A stretch of DNA of 64,000 bases from a candidate division WOR-3 bacterium UBA5631 (GCA_002421425.1 DIJZ01000020.1:825-64824), one strand, 5' to 3'. Shown: positions 6,568 to 55,329, numbered from the stretch's first letter. A program made the numbers and translations. Notes: generated by a model not told the origin, from the sequence alone.

Positions 6568-6578
6568 AGCCTTCTCCA

Positions 6579-31169: not shown

Positions 31170-31619
31170 TTATTGTGCTATTACACCAATAACCCTTCTA
31201 TATAGGACTTCAAGTTCAATTCTATCCTCAGGTCCAGCCTGGGCCCGAGAAAGAATCCCGTAGAATATCGCGGCACCGCCTCCACCCACTCCTCTACCCA
31301 ATCCTTCATAAGCTGCTGCAAATTCTAGAGAACCTCCCTTCTCCGTTACCACAAAAAGCCTTTGAGGAGTTGCCACTACGTTTCTTCCCCCGATCTCCCG
31401 ATTTATCGCATCCATTTGTCTCCCCTCATTCTCTGCAGCCCAGATCTCACTTACCGCCAGTTCAACCCCTCCCTCAGCAGCTTCGAAAGTAGTTAAAGCA
31501 CGTCTTGAAATTCCGGTTATCTTCATGCCTCTCTGCACCAGAACCGCTGTAATACCAGCTATAACTACAATAAATGCAGTCACAAGTATTACCGTAATTA
31601 AAGCAATTCCCTTTCTCAT
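31170..31619 (-). CDS. pilX: PilX-like minor pilin
   Basis: MRKG|IALITVILVTAFIVVIAGI, a prepilin-like hydrophobic N-terminus lacking E5 (as in PilX). ATGA overlap with the upstream gene. Confidence 0.5.
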   Translation of the reverse strand: MRKGIALITVILVTAFIVVIAGITAVLVQRGMKITGISRRALTTFEAAEGGVELAVSEIWAAENEGRQMDAINREIGGRNVVATPQRLFVVTEKGGSLEFAAAYEGLGRGVGGGGAAIFYGILSRAQAGPEDRIELEVLYRRVIGVIAQ

Positions 31620-32518
31620 CGCACATTCCTCACTTTTACGTCTATGGAATAAAATCTTCTCCGCCTCATCTTTGCTTCTGTTCCGAGATTGTAGGTATGG
31701 TCCTCAACTGTGATCTGGTCTTGGGGGAACGTATATTCTCTGTCTATGTTTCCAACAAGAACGATATTGGGCCTTACGGTCTTTAGTAAGGAATTGAAAT
31801 CTGCAATCCCCTGAGGATTCCATAGCCTTTCACCCGTGTTCTCTACACCATTCCTGTTAAAATCTACCCAGTACGCCAGCTGAAAGTCCTCAACCCCCGT
31901 TAGAAAAGGTTCATTGTTCCTGAATAATGTGTCATTTCGAAGCCAATAGATTACCTGCGCTACCTGTCCGCCAGGAACTGTATATACGAAGTTTCCTGCA
32001 GCAGTCTGGACATTTTGCGAAAGAGAAAGCCTGTAGGCTGGCAGGGTATTGTAGGTGAGAACCTCTCTATCTGTCACACGAACGGGCTGGGTAACTATAA
32101 GGTTCTTTTTATCGTCCATAACAATAACATAGTCATCCTTATGGATATCTACCCTGTCGTCACCCCACCTTCTCACAATAATCTCATTAGCGGCAAAGAT
32201 ATCAAGGGTATAACTCCACCTTGTGGTTCCACCAACCACGAAGCCGGTGCTTCTAAGTATCAAAGAGTCTGGAGCATTGCTTTTGTTAATTCCGGCAACC
32301 GGGTTTACCGACGCCGGGACTCCATATCCAGCCATCAGAATATCCCACTTCATAATGTTAAAGGCCTGCTGAATGTCGGTTTGAAGCATCGAGATGCTCT
32401 GCTGTGTAGATGCAGTTCGGATCTGAGAACGGTATACCACAAAAACACCCGTGAGCAAAACACTCAGGATACCTAATGCTACAATTATTTCAATTAGTGT
32501 AACTCCCCTTCTCTTCAT
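31616..32518 (-). CDS. pilW: PilW-like minor pilin
   Basis: MKRRG|VTLIEIIVALGILSVLL, a class III signal with E5. 300 aa. Confidence 0.6.
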   Translation of the reverse strand: MKRRGVTLIEIIVALGILSVLLTGVFVVYRSQIRTASTQQSISMLQTDIQQAFNIMKWDILMAGYGVPASVNPVAGINKSNAPDSLILRSTGFVVGGTTRWSYTLDIFAANEIIVRRWGDDRVDIHKDDYVIVMDDKKNLIVTQPVRVTDREVLTYNTLPAYRLSLSQNVQTAAGNFVYTVPGGQVAQVIYWLRNDTLFRNNEPFLTGVEDFQLAYWVDFNRNGVENTGERLWNPQGIADFNSLLKTVRPNIVLVGNIDREYTFPQDQITVEDHTYNLGTEAKMRRRRFYSIDVKVRNVR

Positions 32519-32563
32519 GAGTTAAGAACTCCTTTTGCAGTGTAGCGCATATTTCAGGATCCC

Positions 32564-32983
32564 CTACATCTCATACTGGCTCCTTACCGTTGTAACTCTG
32601 TATTCCCTTTGAATTCCGGTCCTCGCATCAAGCCATCGGATTATTGTTCTGATAGTGCGAGTTCCATCTGCATTTTCTGCAATATTCCACATTGTCGTGA
32701 AAGCGATGTTATCAAGAGTATCAACCACGGAATGGTCTGGGTTGTCAACATCATCAAGATCATTGTTATCTCCGTCATTAGCAAGTTCAGGAGCATCAAA
32801 AGATACTCCCTTCAGAGCTTCAGAATGGCGCTCTGCCAGAAACCGGGCATTTAACATCTGATTCTGGAGATTGTTGAGCCTTATCGTAGCAATGGCCAGA
32901 GGAATCACGCCCATAAGTCCAATTGTGAGTATAGTAAGTGCCACCAATACTTCGATCAATGTGTAACCTTTACTTTTCTTCAT
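32564..32983 (-). CDS. pilV: PilV-like minor pilin
   Basis: MKKSKG|YTLIEVLVALTILTIGLMGV. The internal Met is the preferred start; the ORF track extends to 33028. Confidence 0.6.
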   Translation of the reverse strand: MKKSKGYTLIEVLVALTILTIGLMGVIPLAIATIRLNNLQNQMLNARFLAERHSEALKGVSFDAPELANDGDNNDLDDVDNPDHSVVDTLDNIAFTTMWNIAENADGTRTIRTIIRWLDARTGIQREYRVTTVRSQYEM

Positions 32984-33512
32984 GCCATGCTCCCCTCCAG
33001 GAGTATACCCTGACCTGTCCAAAGGCATTTACTCCGATACACATCAGATTCCTGTTATCGTTGATGTAAATTTCACCCGGCGTCTCACAGAGGCCGAAAA
33101 CGGAAAATACCACCATGTTGTTTTCAGACCCCGTGCCAAACATAATCCCATCGGAGTCAATAGTACCTCCACCTAAACTAGTAGCAGAACCCAATCCGCC
33201 AAGATTCACCCTAGGACTAAAATAATTAGGATAACTGGCGAGGGTAGAATCAAGATTTGGCAAAGGCTTGTTCTGGTCCTCTATTCTAATTGTCACATTT
33301 TTACCATTAAAAATCAACGCTCGCCTGTTGCTGGCAGACATAGCTGTGGTTCTCTCTGTCTCAAGAAGGGCTTTGACCTTGAAGGCCTCATTTCGTAGCC
33401 TGTTTCTTGCAACCCACCGGTTACCTCCCCAGAAGGGAATCGCAATAACGACACTCATAATAAAGATCACAAGCAATATCTCAATGAGAGTCATGCCCTT
33501 CTTGAGCTTCAT
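32970..33512 (-). CDS. fimT: FimT/FimU/GspH-like minor pilin
   Basis: MKLKKG|MTLIEILLVIFIMSVVIAI; 180 aa. Confidence 0.6.
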   Translation of the reverse strand: MKLKKGMTLIEILLVIFIMSVVIAIPFWGGNRWVARNRLRNEAFKVKALLETERTTAMSASNRRALIFNGKNVTIRIEDQNKPLPNLDSTLASYPNYFSPRVNLGGLGSATSLGGGTIDSDGIMFGTGSENNMVVFSVFGLCETPGEIYINDNRNLMCIGVNAFGQVRVYSWRGAWHEEK

Positions 33513-33523
33513 CTTTCACATCC

Positions 33524-34720
33524 TTATTCTCTCACAACACTTGGTGTGAGGAATATCAAAATCTCTGACTTGCTCTTATCTACTTGATCTCTACCGAACA
33601 GATATCTGATAATAGGGATCCGCAGAATCAGCGGTAATCCTGACTTTGCTCTTTTGTCCTTGTCAACGATAACTCCACCTATCATGACTGTTTCGCCGTC
33701 GGAGATGGTAACTTTTGTCTCAGCCCCTCTTTTTGATGTAATAGGCTGACCTGCAGCTGAGTATCCAGTTAGATCGCCTGTCTCGGTCTTGATAGCCATA
33801 ACTACTTTTCCATCCGGGATTATATGTGGGGTGACTTCCAGAAGAACACCCGTCTCTTCAAACTGGACAATGGTGTTTCCAGCCATATCCCTTGATATTA
33901 CCGGAACCCTAATTTTTGAGTAGATGGATGCCTTTTCATTATCAAGTACCATAATCTTCGGTTCTGATATGGTATTTGCTTTGCTCTGCCCCTCAAGAGC
34001 TTCAATGGCTGCAGCAACTCTGTGCACATTCGTTCCGATGTATGCAACGGTAAGGAAATTTGGATTTTCGGGTGCATAATCATCAAGATTGACCGTCTGC
34101 CTATTTACATTCAACTGAGCACCCGGGTTACCACCATAGGTCAATCCAAACTGCGTACCAAGTTTTCTTGATTCATTGTAATCAACTTCGACAATTTTCC
34201 CCTGTATTAGAACCTGGGGATAAGGTTTATCTACCTGACTCAAAAGGTCTTCAATCTTGTAAATGTTGACTCTCAAATCGGTTACAATAAGGGCATTGGA
34301 AGATTCGTCTACCTTTATGTCACCTCTTGGAGAAAGTTGTGACTTCAGGACTTCAGCAACTCTGCGTGCGTCGGCATACCTCACCTTCAAAACCTTGATA
34401 TCCAGATCTGCGGCGGTTTTCAGCTGACCGAACTCCGATTGAGTCATAATGGTAATAACCCCCTCACTCTCTATCATTGCAAGACCATACGCATCGAGTA
34501 GAGATTTAAGTGCTAGCCTCCACGGAACATCCTTGATATTGAAAGTAACCTTCTGCGTAACGGAGGGGGTAGTAATTATATTAACTCTCCCGACTTCTGC
34601 AAAAGCTCTTAAAACAGTCTTTATATCCGCCTGCTCAACGCTCATAGTAATTCTGGCTTCCTGCGCGTAGACCAGCGACACAGCCATCAGTAAAAACACA
34701 AATTTTTTAAATAACTTCAT
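33524..34720 (-). CDS. pilQ: Type IV pilus secretin PilQ (short form, no AMIN domains)
   Basis: Signal ...SLVYAQ. Secretin C-domain ...VMIGGVIVDKDKRAKSGLPLILRIPIIRYLFGRDQVDKSKSEILIFLTPSVV. Confidence 0.8.
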   Translation of the reverse strand: MKLFKKFVFLLMAVSLVYAQEARITMSVEQADIKTVLRAFAEVGRVNIITTPSVTQKVTFNIKDVPWRLALKSLLDAYGLAMIESEGVITIMTQSEFGQLKTAADLDIKVLKVRYADARRVAEVLKSQLSPRGDIKVDESSNALIVTDLRVNIYKIEDLLSQVDKPYPQVLIQGKIVEVDYNESRKLGTQFGLTYGGNPGAQLNVNRQTVNLDDYAPENPNFLTVAYIGTNVHRVAAAIEALEGQSKANTISEPKIMVLDNEKASIYSKIRVPVISRDMAGNTIVQFEETGVLLEVTPHIIPDGKVVMAIKTETGDLTGYSAAGQPITSKRGAETKVTISDGETVMIGGVIVDKDKRAKSGLPLILRIPIIRYLFGRDQVDKSKSEILIFLTPSVVRE

Positions 34721-34734
34721 TACTAAACCTCCTT

Positions 34735-35520
34735 TTATTTTTTCTCTTCTGCTAATTTTAGTTCAATCCTTCTTGTGAATCCAAAATCTACAGTGGCAAA
34801 AATTACACGGTCGGACTCAATTTTCACAACCCGACCGTTTCTAACCCTATCCCCTTCTTTGAGTACGTAACCTACTCCCCTCCGATCCTGCAGCAGGGCA
34901 ACGTCTCCCTCTTCACTTCTAATCACACCAAGGAGTTTTGCCTCACTAACGTTCAAAAGTTCCTCTTCTCCTTCCATAGCTTCGGGCCGGAAAGGATCTT
35001 TTTTACCTCTTGACGAGTAGAAATACTTTTCTCCCAGTTCCAGTTTGTAAGCCTCTGCTTTGGGTTTCTCGGAAGGTTTCGCAGGCTCAGTATAAGTTTT
35101 CTGAGGTTCTTGCGTCTCCGTTCTATACGGTTCCTGGGTAACGCCTCCTACGAGAATCGTCAGCTTCCCCTCAGACTGTGCAACGGTGTAGGTCCGAAAG
35201 CCATCTACATCGAGGACAACTCTAGCCACAGGCACCGGGTCTCTTTGAAACTGTGCTCCTCTCATACGCTCAATGCCGCCTCTACCAACTACAAAGAGCT
35301 TCTCGCCGAGACCATAAGATACATTTATAAGGTCAATGACAATCCTGGGAGGGTTGGAAAGAGTAAAATGTTTGTATTCAGGGATACCCCCTGTGAATTG
35401 AAGCTCAACAAGAATACCTTCAGGTGTCTCCTTTATCGAATATGCACTGAGAGTATTTTGAGCCTGCAGAACTCCAGCAGAAAAGACAAAAAACGCTATA
35501 AAAGATAGTATTCTCTTCAT
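34735..35520 (-). CDS. pilP: AMIN-domain plus PilP-like pilotin/alignment protein
   Basis: Signal ...GVLQAQ. N-terminal half carries AMIN-like motifs (PPRIVIDLINV; ARVVLDVDGF). C-terminal ...EGDRVRNGRVVKIESDRVIFA resembles the PilP beta-domain. Confidence 0.5.
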   Translation of the reverse strand: MKRILSFIAFFVFSAGVLQAQNTLSAYSIKETPEGILVELQFTGGIPEYKHFTLSNPPRIVIDLINVSYGLGEKLFVVGRGGIERMRGAQFQRDPVPVARVVLDVDGFRTYTVAQSEGKLTILVGGVTQEPYRTETQEPQKTYTEPAKPSEKPKAEAYKLELGEKYFYSSRGKKDPFRPEAMEGEEELLNVSEAKLLGVIRSEEGDVALLQDRRGVGYVLKEGDRVRNGRVVKIESDRVIFATVDFGFTRRIELKLAEEKK

Positions 35521-36101
35521 TTCTTAGCACCTCCGCTAACACCGGCCGCAGGGTTGTATATGTAGCAAATCACTGTAAGTCTACCTCTCACGGTCTGCTG
35601 ACTTTCCTTGTCAGAACCAGAAAGTCGTTCAATCTGCAAATTTTCCACACTCATTATTCTCTCGGAGTTAGCAATAAAACTTATGAAGGTCCCGAGTTCA
35701 TGAAAACCACCCTGTACATCCATACTTACAGGATATTCCACGTACAACTCTTTTGGCCTTGCTGCCTGGGGTTTGAATCCCGTAATCTGAACTCCAGAAG
35801 TTATTGCCATACCCGTTATCTGAGCAAGCCACTCCTCCATTTTCTCTTCCTGTGGAAGGTATTTCTGAGTTTCCTGCCACAGAGCAAGGAGGGAATCTTT
35901 TTCCCTGATTATCCGGTCATAATCTTTGACATAATCCCTTAGATTCTGTACTTTTGTATATTGAGTTTTATACTGGCTCTCAACTTTCTTCAGTTCCCTG
36001 GATTTTGAAGCATAAACTGAATTCCAGAGAAAAAGAAAGGTGAGAACATAAACTATAACAGCTAACAACCATATTACTATCGGCGATTTAAGTTTCTCCA
36101 T
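35517..36101 (-). CDS. pilO: Type IV pilus assembly protein PilO
   Basis: N-terminal TM, coiled coil, then a ferredoxin-like C-domain. ATGA overlap with pilP. Confidence 0.65.
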   Translation of the reverse strand: MEKLKSPIVIWLLAVIVYVLTFLFLWNSVYASKSRELKKVESQYKTQYTKVQNLRDYVKDYDRIIREKDSLLALWQETQKYLPQEEKMEEWLAQITGMAITSGVQITGFKPQAARPKELYVEYPVSMDVQGGFHELGTFISFIANSERIMSVENLQIERLSGSDKESQQTVRGRLTVICYIYNPAAGVSGGAKK

Positions 36102-36570: not shown

Positions 36571-38187
36571 TTATTTCAGTTTTACATTTAACTCAAAACT
36601 TGCGTACCGCTCCTCCTGACTCCCTGCAACTTCAATAGACAGGAGGCTCACTGAATCTACAATTGCTGATTTCTTGAGATTTGTCATAAATTGTGAAATT
36701 CTCATGTTAGAAAGGGCCGCACCGGAAATATTAAGATAATCCCCGCTTCTCTTCAAAGAAGAAAGCCAGCATCCTGAAGGTAGCACCCTGTTAACCTCAT
36801 CAAGAAGTTGTACGTACCTTGTCCGGCCAATTTGAAGTTCTTTTATCAAATCAATTTTTCTTCTTGCGTCTTCGATCTCTCTTTTGAACCCACTAATTTC
36901 ATCAGCCTTCTTCTGAAGTTCCACCTCTTCAGCCTGAAGAGCCACAATTTGCTTCTTCAGTCCTGAAATTCTTCTTGAAGTGCCTATCGTAAGTCCCAGA
37001 ATTCCAATAACGATGAGTAACCATATAAACAGAGCTCCGACTACATGCGGGAGTATTGAGACCTCTTCTACAGCACCCACCGCTTCCATGCCACCTTCTT
37101 GTGGTATAAGGTTTATCCTGTGTTCTTTTCTGTAAAAGTGCAAAACATCCCCGAGGACTATTGGAAGTAGATGAATATTCTCCTTGAGTCCTTTGACTGG
37201 CTCTTCAACCGCAAACAGAGTCCCGAGATCCAGGAACTTTAGGTCTACTCCGTATTTGTTCTTAACAAAGGTACCAACACCGTAGAGCTGGCTTCCTCCT
37301 CCAGAAAGATAGAAATTGAATTTTGCACCAGCCTCTCCAAGGACAGGAACGAACTTCTCCGGGGAAAGGAACCGGTCGTGTAGGGACTCCATAGTCTCTT
37401 CGAAGGAACTCTTTTCGATATTAGCAGTCGGACCATTTATAGCAACCTCTTCAGCTTCTTCTACCCTGAGATCATAGAACCTCGATAGGTTATCGACATA
37501 GGATTTTATTCCCGAGGGAACTTCGAGCATCTGTTGGATTTGTCCATCTTTAATATGGATCAACAGTGCAACTTCGTACCCCATATGGAAGAACACATTA
37601 TCACCGGGTATGTTCTTAAGCCCAAGAGCTTCTATCACCCTGTACAGAGAGACAAGATCCGTAGTAACCATTACGGGTTCCAGTCCAGAAGCTCTCACGA
37701 TGTCCATTATATCGTAAATAAGGCTTAATTTTGCCGTCCCAACAAGAATATCCACTGACTCGGCAATCTGGCTCATGCCAAGTATTTCATAATCCCTGAC
37801 AATTTCCGTCGGATCAACGTGCAACTCTTCTTTTATCTTCCAGTCCACTGCTTCAGCAAGCTTCTCTTTCTTCTTATAGTAGGGAATCACCATCGCTTTA
37901 GACTTTACCTCTCCGCCGGCAACATTTACAATAACATTCGATACATCGGTACCCATTTTGGCAAAAGCATCCCTGATTTTATCTATTAAGACTTGCCTGT
38001 CAATTATGTCCTTCCCGAGAATGACATCAGGAGGAATTTTTTCCATGGAGAAAGCCCTCAAGATGATTTCTTTCTTGACTTTCTCAAAAAGAGCTAATTT
38101 TATGTACTTTGACCCTATATCTAACACAATCACGGGTCCTCTGGCTTTCCCCTTTAAGCCTTTCGTTACATTACCGATAAAAGCCAT
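36571..38187 (-). CDS. pilMN: PilM-PilN fusion protein (actin-like ATPase-fold PilM, then TM plus PilN periplasmic domain)
   Basis: VIVLDIGSKYIKLALFE (PilM) at the N-terminus. INLIPQEGG, TM ALFIWLLIVIGILGL and a C-terminal PilN-like domain. Confidence 0.75.
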   Translation of the reverse strand: MAFIGNVTKGLKGKARGPVIVLDIGSKYIKLALFEKVKKEIILRAFSMEKIPPDVILGKDIIDRQVLIDKIRDAFAKMGTDVSNVIVNVAGGEVKSKAMVIPYYKKKEKLAEAVDWKIKEELHVDPTEIVRDYEILGMSQIAESVDILVGTAKLSLIYDIMDIVRASGLEPVMVTTDLVSLYRVIEALGLKNIPGDNVFFHMGYEVALLIHIKDGQIQQMLEVPSGIKSYVDNLSRFYDLRVEEAEEVAINGPTANIEKSSFEETMESLHDRFLSPEKFVPVLGEAGAKFNFYLSGGGSQLYGVGTFVKNKYGVDLKFLDLGTLFAVEEPVKGLKENIHLLPIVLGDVLHFYRKEHRINLIPQEGGMEAVGAVEEVSILPHVVGALFIWLLIVIGILGLTIGTSRRISGLKKQIVALQAEEVELQKKADEISGFKREIEDARRKIDLIKELQIGRTRYVQLLDEVNRVLPSGCWLSSLKRSGDYLNISGAALSNMRISQFMTNLKKSAIVDSVSLLSIEVAGSQEERYASFELNVKLK

Positions 38188-38201: not shown

Positions 38202-39449
38202 TTATTTGCTTTCCTCAACGAAAGCATTCAAAACCTTGTTTAATAAAACTTCATCGATCTTTTCCCCTAACCTCTTGTACGTCAAAAGCTCTCTAACCAC
38301 TGTCTCAATCTTTTTCAGATTCAACCCCGGCCTTTTAACTATTTGATCAATTATGCTCACCGGAAGCCCTTCTTCACCCATAAAGTTCTTAACAACTTCT
38401 CTTTTGAGTTCCACTGTAGGCTCCTCAATCCCTATGCCCATAAATCCATTTAGTAACGACTTTATTTTCTTACTGAGAGTAGGCATATCTTTTAAAGGCT
38501 GGGCGGAAGTAATAACCACCTGTTTATCCTGCGAAACAAGTTCAGAAAGAACTGTAAAGAGGGCTTCCTGAGCGAAGTCTTTTCCAACCAGAAAATCAAG
38601 ATCATCAAAAAGAAGAAGGTCAGTGTCGCTCAACATGCCAAGGTACCTCTCCAGCTCCCTTTCAGTCTTAAGCCCTTTCAAAGTCGTTACAAACTTAAAG
38701 GCATCAATGTATATAAAACGCCTTAGCGCTTCATTCTCAAGAATATAGTTGGCAATGGACTGCAAAAGATGTGTTTTGCCCGTTCCATCATGTCCGTAAA
38801 TGAAAACCCTTCTTTCTGCTACCCCTCTGGTCTCTGCAAGGTCTTTACACAATAGAAAAGCATGCCGATTAGATTCACCGGTAACATAATTCTCAAAGAC
38901 TTTATCCTTCGCTATTAGAACTCCAATTTCTCTTCTCACTCTCTCCACACCAAACGGTTCCTGGATTCTCTCCTCTCCTCCTGCTTCGACGTAATATTTT
39001 TCGATGGCTTCCCGGATTTCGCTGATGGTTGAGATAAATGGCCTTATCTTCAAATCAGTTACGTTCTTTATCTCAGCAAGCATTTCTTTGTTAACAGGGT
39101 TTGCCATGGCAACGGCGAGAGACTTGCCCTTCTTTCTTATTGGAATCAAAAGATACTTTCTTGCAACTCTTCCTGGGATATGCTCAACTGCTTCGGGGTC
39201 TATATCAATATCCTTGAGCCTTACATAGTGAAGCATTGGAAAACTATCAAGAATGAACTTTACAAGTTGCTCCTCGTTTAGAAATCCCTTTTCCACTAAA
39301 ATCTCTTCAAGGGTCCCTCCCCTTTCCCATTGCTCAGTAAGGGCTGTTTTTATAGCTTCCTTAGTTATAACTCCGCTCTTTTCCAGCAAATCTATAAAGG
39401 TAACCTTAGTACCGGTTTTCTCATCAGCTTTCACATCTTTCCTTATCAT
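38202..39449 (-). CDS. Fusion of a T2SSE_N/MshEN-like N-terminal domain with a DnaA/Hda-type AAA+ module (no DnaA domains I, II or IV)
   Basis: Residues ~15-150 resemble the GspE/PilB N1 domain with two MshEN-like 24-mer halves (TFIDLLEKSGVITKEAIKTALTEQ and TLEEILVEKGFLNEEQLVKFILDSF). The C-terminal module shows DnaA domain III traits. These are ENYVTGESNRHAF, Walker A GHDGTGKTHLL, Walker B LLLFDDLDFL, sensor-1 VVITSAQ, and box VII/sensor-2 ...NLKKIETVVREL. Confidence 0.7.
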   Translation of the reverse strand: MIRKDVKADEKTGTKVTFIDLLEKSGVITKEAIKTALTEQWERGGTLEEILVEKGFLNEEQLVKFILDSFPMLHYVRLKDIDIDPEAVEHIPGRVARKYLLIPIRKKGKSLAVAMANPVNKEMLAEIKNVTDLKIRPFISTISEIREAIEKYYVEAGGEERIQEPFGVERVRREIGVLIAKDKVFENYVTGESNRHAFLLCKDLAETRGVAERRVFIYGHDGTGKTHLLQSIANYILENEALRRFIYIDAFKFVTTLKGLKTERELERYLGMLSDTDLLLFDDLDFLVGKDFAQEALFTVLSELVSQDKQVVITSAQPLKDMPTLSKKIKSLLNGFMGIGIEEPTVELKREVVKNFMGEEGLPVSIIDQIVKRPGLNLKKIETVVRELLTYKRLGEKIDEVLLNKVLNAFVEESK

Positions 39450-46786: not shown

Positions 46787-49188
46787 CAGGGTTTTCTTAT
46801 AACCAGTACCAGGGCGAACAGAGATATCAAAAATCCTGCAGCAGATAGCGCAAATCCAACTTTGTGGAAAATTGAATCAAACTTCATCAAAATTGTGTGT
46901 TCTCCTGCAGGGCAATATACGGCTCTGAAGGCGTAGTTTGCAGTGTACACTTCCGTTTGCTTGCCATCAATGTAGCATTTCCAGCCAGGATGATAGTTTT
47001 CAGAAAACACGACAAATCCCGCTTTGGGAAGGTCTACTTTCACGTCAATTCTATTTGCATCATATCTTGTAAGTTCAATTACTGGACTTCCCGCTTGCGT
47101 AGCCGCTGAAACGGGAATTCGGGGATCTTTTTCCAGAAAAACGAAACTTTTCAGAGAATCTGAGGGTAGCACCTTCAACATCGCCAGGATTGAATCCGGA
47201 GGAAGAACTCTGTACGCCTCAGCAAAGTACACCCTCCCAAGATTACTGGAGTTTTCATAAAGGGCAAATTGCCCCAGGGGCGATACCAGTCTGAAATTCC
47301 CCAGATACTGGATCCACTCCCTTATAGCCTTTCTTGTAGCCTCATCGTACCTTAAAGTATCGATTATCTGGAAGTTATAAGCAATTACATATTTAACATC
47401 CAGGAGATTTAGCATCTCCGGGTGTGAAATTAGGTTCTGCGGGTTGAACATCACGCTCTGCCCAGCCCCAATAAATTCCTGATACCTCCTTGGTGGAGAA
47501 CTTGTATACCCTCCAATAGAGCTAACTCTATGTATTATTAGTGTCCCATCGTTGGCCCTCGGGTACATAAGGGGAAAGATTCTGAAAATACCTGCTTCGT
47601 TCTTAATTGTTTTTATCACAGGATCTTCTCCATACATTTCATCCATGCTGCGTCCCGTATCAACAATGAAATTTCTATTCACAAGATACAGGTCAAGGAA
47701 AACGAGCAAGGATAGCCCTATGGATAAAGAAAGTGCCTCTCTTCTTTTCTTTGAAATAACCACAAGAATCGCATATGCAAGTCCTGCAATGACCAATGAA
47801 AGTAAATAGGATCCGAGAAGTTTCCCGTACCCTTCACCAAGAATGAATATTTTGTCCTTCACATTGCCTGCATCCTTTGCTCTTTGAAGCATTCCAGAAA
47901 ACATACTTATTATTCCACTCTTGAACATCAATAGAATAAGAAATAGTACAGAAAATGCACCCAGGAGATAGAGACCTTCTTTCACGAGCTTTTTTAATTC
48001 TAACTCACCCCTCAAAACACCTTTTATACAAATAGAAGCCAGTATGACCGATATATAATTAAAGATAAAAAACATTAAACTTGGAGCTCTAAACCTTTTT
48101 ACCATCGGAAGAACATAATAGAAAATTTTATAGAAAGGCGTAAAACCTCCCCACACGTAAAGGAGCACAAATACGGCATAAATTGTCAAAAATCTTACCA
48201 GCTTATCTTTCTTCATTTTCGTTACTATCGTCGTCAGAGCGAGGAAGAGTGTAATTATTCCCATATACTCTGTGTGCAGCTTGAAATAGTTTCTTCCCCA
48301 GTATTCATCAAGAATTCCTGAAAAACGGGGCGTAATTAAATTGAGAATTTCCTCGGGAGGCATTGACCAGCTCACCGCATATTCATATCCCCTCTCAGCA
48401 CCCCTCGCAGTGAAAGGCAAATTTTCAAAGACAGGGAGCAGGTAAAAACTGTACATTAGTGCCGCAACTAACCCTCCAAGAACTGAATATAGGGCATAAA
48501 TATAGAATTTTTTGCTTTTCAGGTTGTTTCCCTGAGTGATGTTGTAAAAAACGAAGAAGCATATCAAAAACAAGACTCCATAGTAAGTCATTTGAGGATG
48601 TCCGTTCAAAAACGAGAATCCTACCGCCGCACCCATTAACAAAAAATACCCCAGCTTGCCTGAGTCAATACCTTTAACAAGGAGAGCAAGATATAAAGGC
48701 AGGAGTGCCATGCTGGTCAGACGGCCCAGATGTCCAGCATAAGTCGTGGAGACAAGAACGCCAGAAAATCCATACATTACTCCACCAATTAAGGCTGTAA
48801 GGTCATCTTTCAGGAATTCTCTCAGAAAAAAGTAAGTAGAAATCCCCGCAATGGTTATCATAAATATAAAACCAAGAACGTGCGATATGTGCACTGGAAA
48901 TACAAAAGTACTCAAGAACCTGAGAGTCAAGATTTCAGGGAAAAAAGCTCCAATTGTAGGCATCCCGGAGAAGACATAAATATTCCAGAAAGGAAGTGAA
49001 TGATTCGCTTTAATGTAATCCCTCATAAAAACCCAGTTTGCGTATCCTCCATTCAGCCAGTCAGTACCCATTAGATTTTTTGATGGTGAGAGAAAAGCAA
49101 CATACAACACAAGTGAAAGGGTTAAATAGGCAAGAAATACTACGTACGGCTTCAACTTGAAAACCTTCTCCTGAACAGTTCGTGCCAT
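46786..49188 (-). CDS. YfhO-like GT-C fold membrane glycosyltransferase
   Basis: 800 aa with many N-terminal TM helices and a large C-terminal extracytoplasmic domain, ending in a C-terminal TM helix. Size and architecture match YfhO. Confidence 0.5.
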   Translation of the reverse strand: MARTVQEKVFKLKPYVVFLAYLTLSLVLYVAFLSPSKNLMGTDWLNGGYANWVFMRDYIKANHSLPFWNIYVFSGMPTIGAFFPEILTLRFLSTFVFPVHISHVLGFIFMITIAGISTYFFLREFLKDDLTALIGGVMYGFSGVLVSTTYAGHLGRLTSMALLPLYLALLVKGIDSGKLGYFLLMGAAVGFSFLNGHPQMTYYGVLFLICFFVFYNITQGNNLKSKKFYIYALYSVLGGLVAALMYSFYLLPVFENLPFTARGAERGYEYAVSWSMPPEEILNLITPRFSGILDEYWGRNYFKLHTEYMGIITLFLALTTIVTKMKKDKLVRFLTIYAVFVLLYVWGGFTPFYKIFYYVLPMVKRFRAPSLMFFIFNYISVILASICIKGVLRGELELKKLVKEGLYLLGAFSVLFLILLMFKSGIISMFSGMLQRAKDAGNVKDKIFILGEGYGKLLGSYLLSLVIAGLAYAILVVISKKRREALSLSIGLSLLVFLDLYLVNRNFIVDTGRSMDEMYGEDPVIKTIKNEAGIFRIFPLMYPRANDGTLIIHRVSSIGGYTSSPPRRYQEFIGAGQSVMFNPQNLISHPEMLNLLDVKYVIAYNFQIIDTLRYDEATRKAIREWIQYLGNFRLVSPLGQFALYENSSNLGRVYFAEAYRVLPPDSILAMLKVLPSDSLKSFVFLEKDPRIPVSAATQAGSPVIELTRYDANRIDVKVDLPKAGFVVFSENYHPGWKCYIDGKQTEVYTANYAFRAVYCPAGEHTILMKFDSIFHKVGFALSAAGFLISLFALVLVIRKP

Positions 49189-49206
49189 TGTTTCCTCCTC
49201 AGGGTA

Positions 49207-49235
49207 ATAATAAAGATGGTGCTTTGACTATTCAA
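49207..49235 (-). promoter_or_regulatory. Sigma70-like promoter for the minus-strand envelope/pilus mega-operon
   Basis: Minus strand: TTGAAT (rc of 49230-35), 17 nt spacer, TATTAT (rc of 49207-12), GAGGAGG, then the ATG at 49188. Confidence 0.4.
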
Positions 49236-49252
49236 ACCCTCCGATTTATAAT
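49224..49252 (+). promoter_or_regulatory. Near-consensus sigma70 promoter of the aminotransferase operon
   Basis: TTGACT (49224-29), 17 nt spacer, TATAAT (49247-52). AAAGGAGG SD, then the ATG at 49277. It is back-to-back with the divergent promoter. Confidence 0.55.
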
Positions 49253-49276
49253 TGCTTATCAATTAAAGGAGGTAAA

Positions 49277-50599
49277 ATGGCCTTAAAACCTGAATTAAAA
49301 ACTTCCCTTCCTGGACCACGAGCCAAAGAACTCTTGAAGAAAGACGAAGACTTTATATCACCTTCCTATACAAGAAGCTATCCAGCAGTCATTGAAAAAG
49401 GAAACGGTGTTTGGGTGTATGATGTGGATGGTAACCGATTCCTCGATATGGCTGCAGGGATTGCTGTACTTACAACAGGTCACTGCCACCCCGAGGTCGT
49501 AAAAGCAGTTCAAGAGCAGGCAGCAAAACTAATACATATGTCAGGAACTGATTTCTATTATCCCTATCAAATAGAACTCGCAGAAAAACTCGCTGAGATT
49601 GCTCCAGGATCCAAAAACAAAAGGGTTTTCTTCTCCAATTCAGGCACTGAAGCAAATGAGGCAGCTTTAAAACTTGCAAGGTACAAGACGAGAAGGCCAA
49701 TTTTTGTTGCCTTCTTTGGTGCCTTTCATGGAAGAACCTTTGGTTCTATGAGTATTTCTGCGTCTAAGGCGATACACAGGAGGCACTTTAGCCCCTTGGT
49801 GCCCCAGGTGGTTCATGTGCCCTACCCCAATCCTTACAGACCATTTTTTGGAGTGGCTCCAGAAAAGCTCACCGATACACTGCTTGACTACATCGAAAAC
49901 TACGTTTTTAATACCATTGCACCACCTGAGGATGTCGCTGCCTTCATTTTTGAGCCGGTTCAGGGTGAAGGAGGCTACGTAGTACCTCCACAGGATTTCT
50001 TCCCAAAGCTCAAGAATCTGGCCGAAAAATTCGAGATTCTTCTTATAGATGACGAAGTCCAGGCCGGGATGGGACGGACGGGAAGAATGTTTGCCATCGA
50101 ACACTTTGATATAATTCCCGATATAGTTACCTTAGCAAAAGGAATTGCATCGGGATTCCCCCTTGGAGCTACAATTGCGAAAAAATCGTTGATGGACTGG
50201 GAATCAGGTACCCATGCCAGTACCTTCGGAGGCAACCCCGTTTCCTGTGTTGCAGCTCTCAAGACTATTGAGCTTCTCGAAAGGGGCCTTGTGGAAAACG
50301 CCAGGGTCGTTGGAGGATACCTGAAGGAAAAATTGTTGGAATTGAAGGAAGAGTTTGAGTTTATTGGGGATGTGAGAGGGCTGGGACTTATGATTGGAGT
50401 GGAGATTGTAAAAGACAAGACCTCCAAAACCCCCGATGCAAAACTCAGGAATAAGATCGTAGATGAGGCATTCTACAAAGGGCTTTTGCTCCTCGGTGCA
50501 GGACCGAACACGGTGAGATGGTGCCCTGCACTTGTTGTAACAAAGGAAGAGCTTGATGTAGCACTCGAAATCTTTAGAGATGTCTTGAAAAAAATATGA
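49277..50599 (+). CDS. Class III PLP-dependent aminotransferase (GABA/ornithine/acetylornithine-type)
   Basis: 440 aa with LIDDEVQAGMGRTGRMFA and the PLP lysine in TLAKGIASGFPLGA. Confidence 0.8.
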   Translation: MALKPELKTSLPGPRAKELLKKDEDFISPSYTRSYPAVIEKGNGVWVYDVDGNRFLDMAAGIAVLTTGHCHPEVVKAVQEQAAKLIHMSGTDFYYPYQIELAEKLAEIAPGSKNKRVFFSNSGTEANEAALKLARYKTRRPIFVAFFGAFHGRTFGSMSISASKAIHRRHFSPLVPQVVHVPYPNPYRPFFGVAPEKLTDTLLDYIENYVFNTIAPPEDVAAFIFEPVQGEGGYVVPPQDFFPKLKNLAEKFEILLIDDEVQAGMGRTGRMFAIEHFDIIPDIVTLAKGIASGFPLGATIAKKSLMDWESGTHASTFGGNPVSCVAALKTIELLERGLVENARVVGGYLKEKLLELKEEFEFIGDVRGLGLMIGVEIVKDKTSKTPDAKLRNKIVDEAFYKGLLLLGAGPNTVRWCPALVVTKEELDVALEIFRDVLKKI

Positions 50600-50618
50600 T
50601 GAAGAGGAGGTACCCGTA

Positions 50619-51944
50619 ATGAGGAAAAGAGTAATTATAATGGGCGCTGCCGGAAGAGATTTTCACAACTTTAACGTATTTTTCAGAGACAATGACGAAT
50701 ACGAAGTCGTGGCTTTCACTGCAACTCAAATCCCGGACATTGCAGGCAGAAAGTATCCTGCAGAACTTGCAGGGAAGCTCTACCCAGAAGGTATTCCCAT
50801 TTACCATGAGGACGACCTTGATAATCTCATTAAGGAAAACAAAGTTGACTTCGTCGTATTTTCTTACTCCGACGTATCCCACGAATATGTAATGAACAGA
50901 GCTTCCAAAGCACTGGCAGCCGGAGCCAACTTCATGCTACTCGGCCCTGGATCCACGATGGTGAAATCTGTAAAACCTGTTATTTCTGTGTGTGCCGTAA
51001 GAACAGGTGCAGGGAAGAGTCAGACCACAAGAAGAGTAGCAGAAATCCTCAGAAAACTTGGCAAGAAAACCGTGGTGGTTCGGCACCCGATGCCTTACGG
51101 AGACCTTACAAAACAGGTGGTTCAGAGGTTCGCAAGTCTTGAAGATCTGGACAAACACCACTGTACCATTGAAGAAAGAGAAGAATACGAACCCCATATT
51201 GACCGTGGAAATGTAGTCTATGCGGGTGTGGATTATGAAAAGATCTTAAGACAGGCAGAGCAGGAGGCTGATGTGGTTCTGTGGGATGGAGGTAATAACG
51301 ACTTTCCGTTCTTCAAAACTGACCTCCACATTGTTGTCGCAGATCCGCACAGACCAGGACATGAGGTTACATACCATCCAGGAGAAACGAATTTGCGGAT
51401 GGCTGATATCATTATAATAAATAAGGTAGACACAGCCTACCCTGAAGACATTCAAATGGTTCGAGAGAATGCAAGATCTGCCAACCCTAAAGCGATAATC
51501 ATTGATGCGGCATCTCCTATATACGTTGAAAACCATGAATCCATTAAAGGGAAAAAGGTGCTCGTGATCGAAGATGGACCCACATTGACCCATGGCGAGA
51601 TGGCTTACGGAGCTGGCTATGTTGCGGCGGAAAAATATGGAGCCGCAGAAATTATTGATCCAAGACCTTACGCTGTGGGATCGATAAAGAAAACTTATCA
51701 AAAATTCACCCAGCTTGAGATGATCCTGCCTGCTATGGGATACTCTCCAAAACAACTCAGTGAACTTGAAGAAACCATTAACTCAGTACCTGCAGATCTG
51801 GTAATTGTTGCCACTCCAATTAACCTTGGAAAGATCCTCAAGATTAATAAACCTTACGTGCGAGTGAAATATGAACTTCAGGAAATTGGAAAGCCCGATC
51901 TTGAGGACATTATCAAGGAATTTTTTGCTACCAGGGAGAAATAA
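50619..51944 (+). CDS. P-loop NTPase domain protein, tentatively cyclic 2,3-diphosphoglycerate synthetase-like
   Basis: GAAGRDFHNFN N-terminus and Walker A CAVRTGAGKSQTT. 441 aa. The family assignment is from memory and is not verified. Confidence 0.3.
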   Translation: MRKRVIIMGAAGRDFHNFNVFFRDNDEYEVVAFTATQIPDIAGRKYPAELAGKLYPEGIPIYHEDDLDNLIKENKVDFVVFSYSDVSHEYVMNRASKALAAGANFMLLGPGSTMVKSVKPVISVCAVRTGAGKSQTTRRVAEILRKLGKKTVVVRHPMPYGDLTKQVVQRFASLEDLDKHHCTIEEREEYEPHIDRGNVVYAGVDYEKILRQAEQEADVVLWDGGNNDFPFFKTDLHIVVADPHRPGHEVTYHPGETNLRMADIIIINKVDTAYPEDIQMVRENARSANPKAIIIDAASPIYVENHESIKGKKVLVIEDGPTLTHGEMAYGAGYVAAEKYGAAEIIDPRPYAVGSIKKTYQKFTQLEMILPAMGYSPKQLSELEETINSVPADLVIVATPINLGKILKINKPYVRVKYELQEIGKPDLEDIIKEFFATREK

Positions 51945-51947
51945 TCA

Positions 51948-53705
51948 ATGGAAGGAAACTGGGAAGAGTTCAAGGAGAGGATAAGTAAAGAGCTGGAGGA
52001 GGCCGTAAAGACACTCTTCCAGAAAACGACCCAGGAAATTGAAGAAATTCTTTCATCATCAAAGTCAAGGATAGAGGAGATCCTTAAGAACTTTGAAGAT
52101 GAAAACCTGAACCCTGAGAAGATCAAAGAAAGCCTTAATGAATTTACTAAGGAAATTCTTGAAGATCGAAAGAGCCAGCTTGAATCTGTTTTGAAGTTAG
52201 AGGAAGACGCAATAAAGAGTGAACTTGACGAAACAAGAGAGAAAATTAAATCCAAGATAGAGGATCGTTTGACGCAGGTGGAACAGGAACTGGACTCCCA
52301 TATCAGAGAAGCCATTGAACCTGACAACATAAGAGGGATACTGGAAGAAAAAATTAAACGGTTTATTGAAGAGGAGACCCACATATTCGAAGAAGAGATA
52401 AAAGGCCTCGCAAAGGAAGTTTTAGAGAAGAACCAGAAAGACATTAGAAAAAGCATAGACAAGAATCTGAAGGCTTTTGTTGATGCTGAAGATGGCCTGA
52501 GAAAAGTGATAGGAGAACTCGTCAGAAATCAAAGCGATTACGTTGCTTCTGAACTCAAGGAGAAAATTAGCGAGCTTATTTCTTCCAGCTCTAGGGAGCT
52601 CCTTATGGAGTCTCCACTTTCCGAGCGAATTGCCGAAGTCGTCGGTTACGAAATGAAAAAATACTTTTCAGAGATAGAGAATCTAAAATCTTCTCTTGAT
52701 ATCCTTGAGATGAAGATAAAAATTCTTTCGGAATCGCCAAAATCCGAAATGGAAACTTCAGTTGATAGGATGCCCCTTGCGGAAGAAGCCATTGAAATTC
52801 CCAAGGTAGATATTTTTCCAGAGGACACTGGCGTTGAAGAAGTTATGGAAAACCTTGTTACTCCAGAGAACATTTCCGATCTATCCATAAAAGAAGAACC
52901 CACAGAGTTGGAGAGGAAGGAACCTCAAGAAGAGGTTGAAAAGGTCGAACCCCAGATTTCAGAGATACAAATCGTTGAGGAAGCGCCTGCTCCAAAGAAA
53001 GAAAAAGGAGTAAAGGAAAGAAGGTTTAAACTGGAGACCCCCATTGAAGTTACTTATTTCGGACATGCTGCATTTCTAATTTCTGCTAAAAACGCAAAAA
53101 TCCTGACAGATCCGTATAAACATATGGCCCTTAACAACTCCATAAAATACGCTCCCATAGATGTGGAAGCAGATTTTGTTACAGTAAGTCATATGCATAT
53201 GGATCAGGGGGCATGGAAGGAGATTCCAGGGAGTCCAAAACTCGTGGAAGTTGCTGGAGAAAAAACTTTTGCAGATTACCCCTACCTAAAATTCAAAGGC
53301 ATTCATACTTATCACGACAACGCTGAAGGAAACGTCAGAGGTTCAAATATGGTGTATAACATTGAGATTACTGGTATCAGAATTACGCACCTGGGCGCTT
53401 TGGGACATATCCTTACAAAAGAACAGGTCAGAGAAATCGGAAGACCTGTAGATATTCTAATAATACCCGTCGGAGGCTATGACACATTACCCGTGAAGGA
53501 TGCCTGGGAAGTTGTCGGACAGCTGGATCCATTAGTCGTAATCCCTATGAGATTTAAGACCGACGCCTGCGATCTTCCCCTCGCTGAAGTGGATGCTTTT
53601 ACGAGCCTTGCTAACTGCCCGGTGAAATTGCTGAATTCATCCTTAACCATCGAGGCGCTGCCGACCTCCCTTGAGATATGGGTTATGAAGCCTCTGAAAA
53701 TGTAG
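51948..53705 (+). CDS. Fusion of an N-terminal ~330 aa polyacidic coiled-coil region with a C-terminal MBL-fold (UPF0173-like) metal-dependent hydrolase
   Basis: The N-terminal region is E/K/L-rich heptad-like (EEILKNFEDENL...). The C-terminal region has YFGHAAFLI...VSHMHMDQ...HLGALGH. Confidence 0.6.
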   Translation: MEGNWEEFKERISKELEEAVKTLFQKTTQEIEEILSSSKSRIEEILKNFEDENLNPEKIKESLNEFTKEILEDRKSQLESVLKLEEDAIKSELDETREKIKSKIEDRLTQVEQELDSHIREAIEPDNIRGILEEKIKRFIEEETHIFEEEIKGLAKEVLEKNQKDIRKSIDKNLKAFVDAEDGLRKVIGELVRNQSDYVASELKEKISELISSSSRELLMESPLSERIAEVVGYEMKKYFSEIENLKSSLDILEMKIKILSESPKSEMETSVDRMPLAEEAIEIPKVDIFPEDTGVEEVMENLVTPENISDLSIKEEPTELERKEPQEEVEKVEPQISEIQIVEEAPAPKKEKGVKERRFKLETPIEVTYFGHAAFLISAKNAKILTDPYKHMALNNSIKYAPIDVEADFVTVSHMHMDQGAWKEIPGSPKLVEVAGEKTFADYPYLKFKGIHTYHDNAEGNVRGSNMVYNIEITGIRITHLGALGHILTKEQVREIGRPVDILIIPVGGYDTLPVKDAWEVVGQLDPLVVIPMRFKTDACDLPLAEVDAFTSLANCPVKLLNSSLTIEALPTSLEIWVMKPLKM

Positions 53706-53708
53706 TTA

Positions 53709-54743
53709 ATGCCTGAAAATCTTGTAACACTGAAGCCTGCAGAACTGCAAAAAGTTCTGGGTGAAATCAAAGAACCCCCTTACAGAATACGACAAATTTA
53801 TAAGTGGGTCTGGGGTAAAAGCAGTAATGAAATTTTAAATTTTTCGGATTTACCCACCCGACTTCGTGAGCATCTCTCAAGGAATTACTACATAAGACGG
53901 GCGGAATTGGTTTCTGCCCTTCATTCATCTGACGGAGCAATAAAATTCCTTCTAAGACTGGAAAACCAGGACCAGATAGAATCTGTTTTCATTCCAGATG
54001 CAGAGAGAAACACTGTTTGCGTCTCGTCCCAGGTAGGCTGTCCGCTGAAGTGCACCTTCTGCGCCACCGGAAAACTTGGATACACAAGGAATCTTAAGTT
54101 CCATGAAATACTGGAGCAGGTTCGAATAGTGCGGGATTATGTAAATACAAGGATTACAAATGTTGTTTTTATGGGTATGGGAGAGCCGCTCCTGAACTAT
54201 GAAGAAGTCATTGAGGCCGCAAGGATTCTGAATGACAACTATACTTTTGGGATAGGTGCAAGGAAAATTACCATATCCACGGCGGGGATAATTCCCGGAA
54301 TCAGGAAGTTAATGAAGGAGCCCGAACAGTTCAAGCTCGCAGTCTCTCTTAACTCTGCCATCCAGGAAAAAAGAGAAATGCTCATGCCAGTTGCAAAAAA
54401 ATTCACCCTGTTGAGTTTGAAAGAGAGTCTTATTGAATTTTACGAAGCCAAAAAGCGATGGATTACCTTTGAATATATCCTGATTCCTGAAGTGAACGAT
54501 TCGAAAGAGGACCTTGAGGCACTGGCGGATTATGTTAATTCTATACCCTCAAAACTCAACCTGATACCCTACAACCCTCATCCATACTCGGAATTCAGAG
54601 CACCAACGGATCAGGAAGTGGAGAAATTCCTGAAAGGACTCCGAAAACGCATTCTCAGAGCGGTAACCCTGAGAAAGTCAAAGGGACAGGATATTCAGGG
54701 CGCTTGCGGCCAGCTGGCTTACTTTGTGAAACCGAAAGAATAA
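53709..54743 (+). CDS. rlmN: 23S rRNA/tRNA adenine-C2 methyltransferase RlmN (radical SAM)
   Basis: CPLKCTFCATG (CxxxCxxC). N-terminus YRIRQIYKWVW; 344 aa. Confidence 0.85.
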   Translation: MPENLVTLKPAELQKVLGEIKEPPYRIRQIYKWVWGKSSNEILNFSDLPTRLREHLSRNYYIRRAELVSALHSSDGAIKFLLRLENQDQIESVFIPDAERNTVCVSSQVGCPLKCTFCATGKLGYTRNLKFHEILEQVRIVRDYVNTRITNVVFMGMGEPLLNYEEVIEAARILNDNYTFGIGARKITISTAGIIPGIRKLMKEPEQFKLAVSLNSAIQEKREMLMPVAKKFTLLSLKESLIEFYEAKKRWITFEYILIPEVNDSKEDLEALADYVNSIPSKLNLIPYNPHPYSEFRAPTDQEVEKFLKGLRKRILRAVTLRKSKGQDIQGACGQLAYFVKPKE

Positions 54744-55114
54744 GGCAAAAAATCCCGTACGGTTTTTTGGACAAGACCTTCAGAAGTCCTTATCAAAATG
54801 AGCATTTCCTTCGAAAACTCCGCAAGGACCTGCAGACATGCACCACACGGAAAAGGCGACACCGATGCGTTGTCGGCTACAATTGCAATAGCCTTAAAGT
54901 TTCTTTTGCCATCAGAGATGGCTTTGAATAGAGCCACTCTTTCTGCACAAATGGTAAGTCCGTACGAACTGTTTTCTACATTTACACCTGTATATACAGA
55001 ACCGTCCTCGCATAAAATAGCCGCTCCAACCCTGTAATTAGAATACGGTGCATACGCATTCCCAAGGGCACCCTCTGCTCTTTTTACAAGCTCCTCAATC
55101 TCTCCACGTAGCAT
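54719..55114 (-). CDS. cdd: Cytidine deaminase
   Basis: CAERVALFKAISDG and PCGACLQVLAEF zinc ligands. Confidence 0.85.
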   Translation of the reverse strand: MLRGEIEELVKRAEGALGNAYAPYSNYRVGAAILCEDGSVYTGVNVENSSYGLTICAERVALFKAISDGKRNFKAIAIVADNASVSPFPCGACLQVLAEFSKEMLILIRTSEGLVQKTVRDFLPYSFGFTK

Positions 55115-55329
55115 TGATCCTGACTCCTGAAATACTCAATCCGAAAGGAAGACCCATCTTCCAGCACTACTTTGTGTACTTCCCTTTCGTTTCCCATAAA
55201 ATCTCTCACTGTTCCCACGGGTATCCATTTCTCCACCAAAAGCTTCTTCCCTTCTACAATAATAGCCACAGGTCGCTCACAGACCTTTTCTCCATCATGC
55301 CAGACCACGTCAAAAGGATCCACTTTCAT
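55084..55329 (-). CDS. Small hypothetical protein (81 aa)
   Basis: An ORF between cvpA and cdd, overlapping cdd by 31 nt. No recognisable family. Confidence 0.3.
   Translation of the reverse strand: MKVDPFDVVWHDGEKVCERPVAIIVEGKKLLVEKWIPVGTVRDFMGNEREVHKVVLEDGSSFRIEYFRSQDQCYVERLRSL

Follow-up and report, generated by a model that had tools for sequence, protein, structure and literature searches.

The question raised by the 64,000-nucleotide stretch of DNA analysed here (the window; candidate division WOR-3 bacterium UBA5631, GCA_002421425.1 DIJZ01000020.1:825-64824) is what is specified by three tightly linked genes on its plus strand, which encode a class III aminotransferase, a P-loop protein of 441 residues and a protein with a metallo-beta-lactamase (MBL) fold. 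The original prediction, made from the sequence alone, had likened the P-loop protein to the cyclic 2,3-diphosphoglycerate synthetases (cDPGS) and had proposed that the three genes specify an undescribed compatible-solute or cofactor pathway. The open reading frames (ORFs) lie on the same strand exactly where they had been placed, separated by 19 nucleotides between the aminotransferase and P-loop genes and by 3 nucleotides between the P-loop and MBL genes (Table 1). The proposed pathway was not borne out, the family of the P-loop protein being ArcE, which is linked to arginine genes. The locus very probably represents a bacterial version of the recently described ArcE arginine synthetase system, with its genes arranged in a manner specific to one clade, namely a four-gene operon of a WOR-3/Hydrothermia bacterium coding for an ornithine-type aminotransferase, ArcE, the MBL-fold protein and the RNA methyltransferase RlmN, and as an overall explanation an operon for arginine/ornithine breakdown is very likely.

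In the P-loop protein, the motifs GAAGRDFHNFN and GAGKSQTT are present as had been noted, starting at residues 9 and 130, and are followed by WDGGNND (residue 222) and NKVD (residue 268); G132 and K133 of the P-loop are nearly invariant among 25 family members, down to 37% identity. In the profile assignment proposed at the time as a check, no Pfam or NCBIfam model claimed the protein above its cutoff. The only hits were to the CobW/HypB model PF02492, with 20.5 bits where 20.7 are required (64 residues, 232-295), and a trace of HypB. The sole meaningful sequence matches in the PDB (phmmer) were cDPG synthetases (9SXB, E 1e-6; 8ORK/8ORU, E 1.5e-4), with an alignment spanning just residues ~210-360 to which a family profile added little. 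An AlphaFold2 model (predicted local distance difference test, pLDDT, 83.5; predicted template modelling score, pTM, 0.84) retrieved cDPGS first in Foldseek (8ORU, E 2e-17, 16% identity), followed by the P-loop kinase LpxK (4EHY, E 1e-7, TM-score 0.63 normalised on the target). The resemblance is therefore real homology by both phmmer and Foldseek, but it is remote and the predicted function differs. Membership of the cDPGS family itself is not indicated by the sequence, in which neither full-length similarity at the family level nor the Lys-Arg pair of the P-loop was found. In the Methanothermus fervidus enzyme, K145 and R146 of the P-loop bind 2,3-diphosphoglycerate (2,3-DPG; PMC10690619). 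When its GKRVGKT is set against RTGAGKS of the window protein, these residues align with T129 and G130, in a weak-scoring segment anchored on GK[ST]. Two further families were tried and set aside: DUF1611/DgcN, for which there was no Pfam match and a Foldseek hit (2OBN, E 7e-5) of only 0.19-0.23 in TM-score and 10% identity, and the G3E GTPases (CobW/HypB/UreG), for which PF02492 remained below its gathering score with short coverage. No solved structure of the ArcE family was found in the PDB copy searched.

The function of the family comes from Thermococcus kodakarensis, in which TK2200 (ArcE) was described as an arginine synthetase, or ATP-forming arginine deiminase (Michimori, Yokooji and Atomi, PNAS 2024, PMC11032458). 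The purified enzyme converts arginine, ADP and inorganic phosphate, with Mg2+, into citrulline, ammonia and ATP, and catalyses the reverse reaction; it accepts specifically L-arginine and free ammonia and has a preference for ADP, the relative activity with GDP being 8.4%. The arcE gene, formerly annotated as hypothetical or as a putative GTPase, has arcB/arcC nearby in some genomes, and the predicted TK2200 structure has an LpxK 4EHY-like core in a family with low similarity to cDPGS. Members were reported in Coprothermobacter, Caldisericum, Caldithrix, Chloroflexi, Thermotogae, Acidobacteria and others. Running in both directions, the reaction allows growth on citrulline in vivo, an anabolic role being suggested where ArgG/ArgH are absent, and genetic evidence in T. 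kodakarensis indicates that ArcE provides the ornithine which the ornithine aminotransferase (OrnAT) TK2101 needs for proline synthesis (PMC11032458). A 2026 follow-up adds that the pathway also supplies carbamoyl phosphate (PMC13260591).

The window protein agrees with this description in several respects. Homologues 66-76% identical to it occur in the taxa listed for ArcE in PMC11032458, and its AlphaFold2 model combines an LpxK (4EHY)-like P-loop core with low similarity to cDPGS, as described there for TK2200. Because the family lies near arcB/arcC, overlaps in taxa, shares the annotation history and has the cDPGS/LpxK fold, the 441-residue protein is assigned, with a high degree of confidence, as a bacterial ArcE arginine synthetase. 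The protein would thus belong to a common family with a known, unrelated function, an outcome under which the original prediction was to be given up; the family is ArcE (PMC11032458), and DUF1611, which had been offered as an example, was not matched.

The link to arginine genes was established from gene neighbourhoods, for which ORFs were called in 80 loci from GTDB genomes and the neighbours clustered, the counts being taken over 69 loci. Carbamate kinase (arcC) is encoded near arcE in 14 loci, and in 11 of them, spread over at least six phyla, its gene directly follows arcE in the same orientation; ornithine carbamoyltransferase (OTCase, arcB) is found near arcE in six loci and downstream in five. 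In a Coprothermobacteraceae locus (L086), the ArcE of which is 76% identical to that of the window, arcE is followed by OTCase (TIGR00658, 462 bits against a cutoff of 281) and then by carbamate kinase (TIGR00746, 363.5 bits against 358). The family is accordingly linked to arcB and/or arcC both in the survey and in this close relative. Arginyl-tRNA synthetase (argS) is encoded near arcE in 19 of the 69 loci and directly upstream in 18, all of Chloroflexota type. These same-strand adjacencies (L010, L011, L012, L015, L022, L026, L029, L033, L037, L039, L041, L042, L048, L053, L056, L059, L063, L074) have arcE at ~6001-7300 in most of the 18 Anaerolineae/Chloroflexota loci, and they are not mentioned in the part of the ArcE paper that was available (PMC11032458). 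They could reflect the synteny of a single lineage or hint at an anabolic or regulatory link.

Judged from sequence identities, the ArcE family appears to be one tight orthologous group, very large and widely distributed. The best 120 protein matches, which belong to WOR-3, Hydrothermia and Coprothermobacteraceae, descend from 100% to 71% identity. A GTDB scan with one genome per species yielded confirmed relatives in at least 593 species, the best 80 of which are still 65-73% identical to the window protein and include Chloroflexota, Acidobacteriota, Aminicenantes, Calditrichota, Caldiserica, Zixibacteria, Petrotogaceae, Thermoplasmatota, Bathyarchaeia, Aenigmarchaeota and Heimdallarchaeota. 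Among cluster representatives, E<=1e-30 was reached by 733 clusters formed at 50% identity, and members from bacterial and archaeal phyla share 65-89% identity with the window protein. Public labels for these proteins are 'predicted GTPase', 'GTPase' and 'cyclic 2,3-diphosphoglycerate synthase', the last being carried at NCBI by many (P0007, P0010, P0015, P0121-P0154 and others); no model in Pfam-A and NCBIfam release 20 matches the family, and a literature search on COG2403 returned no papers. The ArcE assignment would consequently correct a mis-reading shared by public annotation pipelines, since TK2200, so far the only assayed member, is an arginine synthetase (PMC11032458) and the labels say cDPG synthase or GTPase.

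A Thermococcus counterpart was also sought among the family proteins. One NCBI entry, 'GTPase [Thermococcus sp.]' (P0072), is 78% identical to the window protein, and its 3.3-kb contig (L167, JGI Ga0116200_10020783, 3294 bp) carries the Hydrothermia-type order aminotransferase-ArcE-(MBL start); the Thermococcus label is probably that of a mis-binned contig, and the entry was dropped as a stand-in for TK2200 on account of this gene order. A homology search seeded with an Aciduliprofundum homologue had no Thermococcales member among its matches, nor did a look-up of 10 cluster representatives bring one up, and the C-terminal peptide ...CEKLKK, deduced from a primer in the 2026 paper, matched none of 398 proteins compared.

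The first gene of the locus was rightly described as a class III aminotransferase (Pfam Aminotran_3, E 1e-124). Its 440-residue product passes the NCBIfam equivalog model NF004426 (678.4 bits, cutoff 552), which bears the name 'acetyl ornithine aminotransferase family protein', and stays below the cutoff of the argD model (377.8 bits, cutoff 410.05). The best PDB match by a wide margin is 7VNO from P. horikoshii (454 residues, annotated as a gamma-aminobutyric acid (GABA) aminotransferase; 500 bits, full length, 52.5% identity), which we identify, tentatively, with PH1423, an archaeal ornithine delta-aminotransferase; the next classes are racemases (387 bits), GABA aminotransferases (293 bits) and acetylornithine aminotransferases (285 bits). 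For both PH1423 and TK2101, ornithine delta/omega-aminotransferase activity has been characterised (PMC9986279), and the window enzyme is probably of this type. In two more distant relatives (L085, 12095-13303, plus strand; L099, 1860-2765), the gene directly after rlmN codes for an ornithine--oxo-acid transaminase of RocD type (TIGR01885, 592 bits, cutoff 378), so that the block there contains two different class III aminotransferases. This second enzyme reinforces the ornithine theme of the block and is also a warning that the amine substrate of the first aminotransferase may be broader or different.

The near-consensus promoter of the original prediction was confirmed upstream of the aminotransferase gene, as the sole 11/12 match to the sigma-70 consensus within 6.4 kb (48900-55300). 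The segment CTTTGACTATTCAAAC (window 49221-49236), which overlaps the -35 box, is shared without change by five genomes (window, L083, L087, L091, L093), and in the latter four (the ~88% clade) this -35 region and the -10 box occupy the same position in flanks that vary. TTGACT is also found upstream in L084, L095 and L097, with a 17-nucleotide spacer to TAAAAT, and in L085 and L098, where TTGACTATTCA is present upstream too. This conservation of position is stronger evidence for the promoter than the consensus match alone. The conserved upstream stretch TTGACTATTCAA is a self-palindrome at 10 of 12 positions and a possible operator; an ArgR-type operator was considered here and set aside, as the palindrome is not an ARG box. 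No terminator-like site was found on the plus strand between 49277 and 54743, rlmN starts 3 nucleotides after the MBL gene and the next gene downstream is convergent, an arrangement which suggests that rlmN belongs to the same transcription unit as the predicted aminotransferase, arcE and MBL genes. The three genes of the originally predicted operon are thus as stated, and rlmN is added as a fourth.

The conservation of this arrangement was followed through a metagenome scan with the MBL alignment (80 loci). The 13 loci with an MBL domain at least 50% identical all have the gene order of the window as far as their contigs extend, the MBL gene standing directly after arcE in 12 and being seen as MBL-rlmN in the truncated L099. 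The other 67 (34-46% identity) match just the MBL domain of ~215 residues (query ~360-585), without the N-terminal extension, and none has ArcE, the aminotransferase or RlmN within 5 kb. Wherever the contig of a relative is long enough, rlmN comes after the MBL gene, and the four-gene block is kept where the flanking genes differ completely (L085 compared with the window). In the GTDB survey, on the other hand, a homologue of the window-type aminotransferase occurs near arcE in a single locus, at 29% identity, and an MBL homologue in none. The aminotransferase-ArcE-MBL-RlmN block is therefore conserved only in one WOR-3/Hydrothermia clade; the neighbourhood conservation that had been suggested as a check on the triad holds within this clade, with rlmN included, and not beyond it.

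From the gene order, the conserved promoter and the family membership seen in context and similarity, we infer an ArcE-type activity, a catabolic direction of flux and ornithine as the substrate of the aminotransferase. ArcE would interconvert L-arginine, ADP and inorganic phosphate with L-citrulline, ammonia and ATP by P-loop phosphoryl transfer on the ureido/guanidino group. Citrulline would then be split by OTCase and a second ATP would be gained by carbamate kinase, the genes of both presumably lying elsewhere in the genome. The aminotransferase most likely would convert ornithine and 2-oxoglutarate into glutamate and glutamate 5-semialdehyde/delta-1-pyrroline-5-carboxylate, which could feed the proline or glutamate pools, as shown for ArcE and TK2101 in T. 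kodakarensis (PMC11032458). The pairing of ArcE with an ornithine-type aminotransferase would therefore bring together two enzymes of one route, with the OTCase step between them.

For the direction of this route, the catabolic, ATP-yielding one is favoured. An operon that makes arginine, in which the aminotransferase would act as an ArgD-like acetylornithine aminotransferase and ArcE would fix ammonia on citrulline with ATP in place of argininosuccinate synthetase and lyase, is unlikely. It has on its side the reversibility of the ArcE reaction, with growth on citrulline in vivo and the anabolic role proposed where ArgG/ArgH are lacking (PMC11032458), as well as the NCBIfam family name of the aminotransferase and the arcE-argS adjacency in Anaerolineae, which is biosynthesis-like. 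The aminotransferase, however, scores below the argD cutoff and matches 7VNO, taken to be the catabolic-type OrnAT PH1423, with 500 bits against 285 for acetylornithine aminotransferases. A catabolic ornithine aminotransferase of RocD type joins the block in L085 and L099, carbamate kinase, which is catabolic and yields ATP, predominates among the neighbours of the family, and the Pfam inventory of the window contains no other genes of arginine biosynthesis.

Somewhat less likely still is a dedicated functional module of the Hydrothermia clade, made up of ArcE, the aminotransferase of PH1423 type and the clade-specific, Glu-rich MBL protein and distinct from the arcE-arcB-arcC pathway of Thermococcus. 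It would be compatible with the strict association of the long MBL form and arcE (13 of 13 loci). Possible variants are an anabolic shortcut, with ArcE standing in for ArgG/ArgH, or a modified arginine/ornithine route in which the MBL protein would act on an intermediate or serve ArcE as a regulator or scaffold. A G3E-type GTPase or metallochaperone, inserting metal in a nucleotide-dependent manner, for example into the adjoining MBL protein, is very improbable. The P-loop, WDGGNND and NKVD motifs, the public label 'predicted GTPase' and weak CobW/HypB/UreG matches (20.5 bits in Pfam; HypB in the PDB at E 0.06, with a profile at E 7e-4) would fit such a protein, but the cobW score lies below the cutoff of 20.7 and covers 64 residues only, TK2200 is a metabolic enzyme that prefers ADP over GDP (PMC11032458), and the MBL partner is absent from all 69 loci elsewhere. 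Least probable of all, and largely refuted, is a bacterial cDPG synthetase or related maker of a cyclic phospho-solute which, with the aminotransferase and the MBL protein, would constitute a new solute or cofactor pathway: cDPGS structures are the best PDB matches in sequence and fold and many family members bear the cDPG synthase label at NCBI, but identity is 16%, sequence similarity extends over just ~110-150 residues, the 2,3-DPG-binding pair is replaced by Thr-Gly, the family occurs in hundreds of mesophilic and non-methanogen lineages with arginine genes as partners and not 2-phosphoglycerate kinase, the aminotransferase and MBL genes accompany arcE in one clade only, and the characterised member, TK2200, catalyses a different reaction (PMC11032458).

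Several observations weigh against arginine/ornithine breakdown by this operon. To our knowledge, no bacterial ArcE has been assayed so far. The orthology to TK2200 is indirect, and the identity of 7VNO with PH1423 is presumed. The 64-kb window contains no OTCase, carbamate kinase or ArgS gene by tblastn, and its Pfam inventory shows no argG/argH, proC or other arginine or proline genes; because OTCase, carbamate kinase, argG/argH and proC are missing from these 64 kb, the pathway is incomplete as seen there. The block is absent in other WOR-3/Hydrothermota genomes (L003-L007, L168), the ArcE of which is 70-73% identical, and the adjacency of the aminotransferase and arcE genes in one clade only could be inherited synteny without functional meaning. 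With rlmN in the same predicted unit, the operon is functionally mixed, and guilt by association is therefore weak.

A carbamoyltransferase gene was observed in the relative L084 (743-1753, minus strand), 6 kb upstream of the aminotransferase-ArcE block. Its product is below every NCBIfam cutoff (best for OTCase, 258.9 bits against 280.85), and the gene adjoins that of a PALP-family enzyme; genes for fumarase and malic enzyme stand next to them. These fumarase and malic enzyme genes recur in the window (18238-20413), without the carbamoyltransferase.

The MBL protein was called polyacidic, and this is accurate for its N-terminal 360 residues (Table 1). Its C-terminal domain matches T. maritima TM0207 (PDB 1VJN, E 7e-36) and contains the metal motif HMHMDQ (window 53190-53207, residues 415-420), in which H415, H417 and D419 are invariant; residue 420 is Gln in the window and in its nearest relative L083, and His in L084 and L085 (HAHMDH or HGHMDH). 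Gln in place of the last His may change the metal stoichiometry or the activity. Overall identity to three relatives is 61, 43 and 34%, with indels, the catalytic domain being well conserved. The extension is present in these relatives, with poorly conserved sequence and variable length, and is absent from MBL homologues outside the clade; it therefore appears to be a clade-specific, fast-evolving addition. The MBL protein and RlmN are regarded as clade-specific co-travellers of the predicted arginine enzymes.

Table 1. Coordinates of the arcE operon and its elements, counted from the first nucleotide of the window
Feature	Position	Strand	Basis or remarks
Sigma-70-type promoter, TTGACT-17 nt-TATAAT	49224-49252	+	11/12 consensus
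Ribosome-binding site, AAGGAGG	49267-49273	+	3 nt 5' of ATG at 49277; kept in relatives
Class III aminotransferase ORF, 440 aa	49277-50599	+	ORF call
P-loop protein (predicted arcE) ORF, 441 aa	50619-51944	+	ORF call
Walker A / P-loop GAGKSQTT, ArcE residues 130-137	51006-51029	+	Motif
MBL protein ORF, 585 aa	51948-53705	+	ORF call
Glu/Lys-rich N-terminal extension, MBL residues 1-360	51948-53027	+	21.7% Glu, net charge -37, pI 4.6
TM0207-like metallo-beta-lactamase-fold domain (Lactamase_B_3)	53028-53705	+	PF13483, 144 bits vs cutoff 24, E 5e-42, residues 367-534
rlmN, dual-specificity RNA methyltransferase	53709-54743	+	TIGR00048, 350.7 bits vs cutoff 290

Other genes of the window are rpoBC, ribosomal protein genes, thyX, the malic enzyme and fumarase genes, a type IV pilus cluster and cell-envelope genes, among others; no candidate for a 2-phosphoglycerate kinase came up among the window ORFs scanned. 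The pilus cluster comprises PilM/N (36571-38187), PilO (35517-36101), an AMIN protein (34735-35520), a secretin (33524-34720), pilins (31616-33028) and a PilY1-like protein (27572-31150), and inside it lies the gene of a 415-residue protein (38202-39449, minus strand) with an unusual pairing of an MshEN domain (residues 74-157) and a DnaA-type AAA ATPase domain (181-334). A 742-residue protein (14844-17072, minus strand) has 11 LVIVD repeats and a C-terminal sorting domain of the type IX secretion system (T9SS; Por_Secre_tail).

Taken together, ATP-yielding arginine catabolism is predicted for WOR-3/Hydrothermia, which bears on the life of uncultured thermophiles on peptides. The locus also provides independent genomic support for the link between ArcE and ornithine aminotransferase, until now a genetic one known from a single archaeon; this advance is modest and incremental.

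In comparison with known systems, the MBL protein is like TM0207 (PDB 1VJN, Lactamase_B_3), a structural-genomics protein of unknown function, in its C-terminal 225 residues and its HxHxD metal motif, and unlike it in the Glu/Lys-rich extension of 360 residues, found in the clade only, and in Gln as the fourth motif residue. The cDPGS of M. fervidus (PDB 8ORK/8ORU; PMC10690619) is the best fold match of the P-loop protein; both have two domains, an N-terminal alpha/beta domain and a P-loop NTP-binding core, and both presumably transfer the phosphoryl group of ATP to a substrate oxygen and then displace phosphate. They differ in sequence (16% identity, K145/R146 replaced by T129/G130), in substrate (2,3-DPG as against arginine/citrulline), in genomic partners and in taxonomic range. 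The aminotransferase shares with PH1423/TK2101 the NCBIfam equivalog NF004426 and a pyridoxal phosphate-lysine motif (VTLAK aligned with VTVAK), with 52.5% full-length identity to the 7VNO chain; unlike them it is bacterial and its specificity is a prediction from sequence, and as PH1423 also takes Lys, D-Orn, GABA and 5-aminovalerate, homology alone gives no specificity. The route from arginine through citrulline to ornithine and carbamoyl phosphate, and from there to ATP, is that of the classical arginine deiminase pathway (arcABC), from which the proposed one differs in that the first step would be taken by an ATP-making P-loop enzyme and not by the hydrolytic ArcA, and in that the operon lacks arcB and arcC. 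Finally, compared with ArcE/TK2200 as described in PMC11032458, the host here is bacterial (WOR-3/Hydrothermia), arcB and arcC are neither adjacent nor within the 64 kb, and the predicted arcE is probably co-transcribed with the genes of the aminotransferase, the Glu-rich MBL protein and RlmN. The two have in common a length of ~440 residues, the P-loop, an LpxK/cDPGS-like fold with low similarity to cDPGS, the same annotation history, a family that clusters with arcB/arcC, and the partnership with a PH1423/TK2101-type aminotransferase, which is genetic in T. kodakarensis and is seen here in the gene order.

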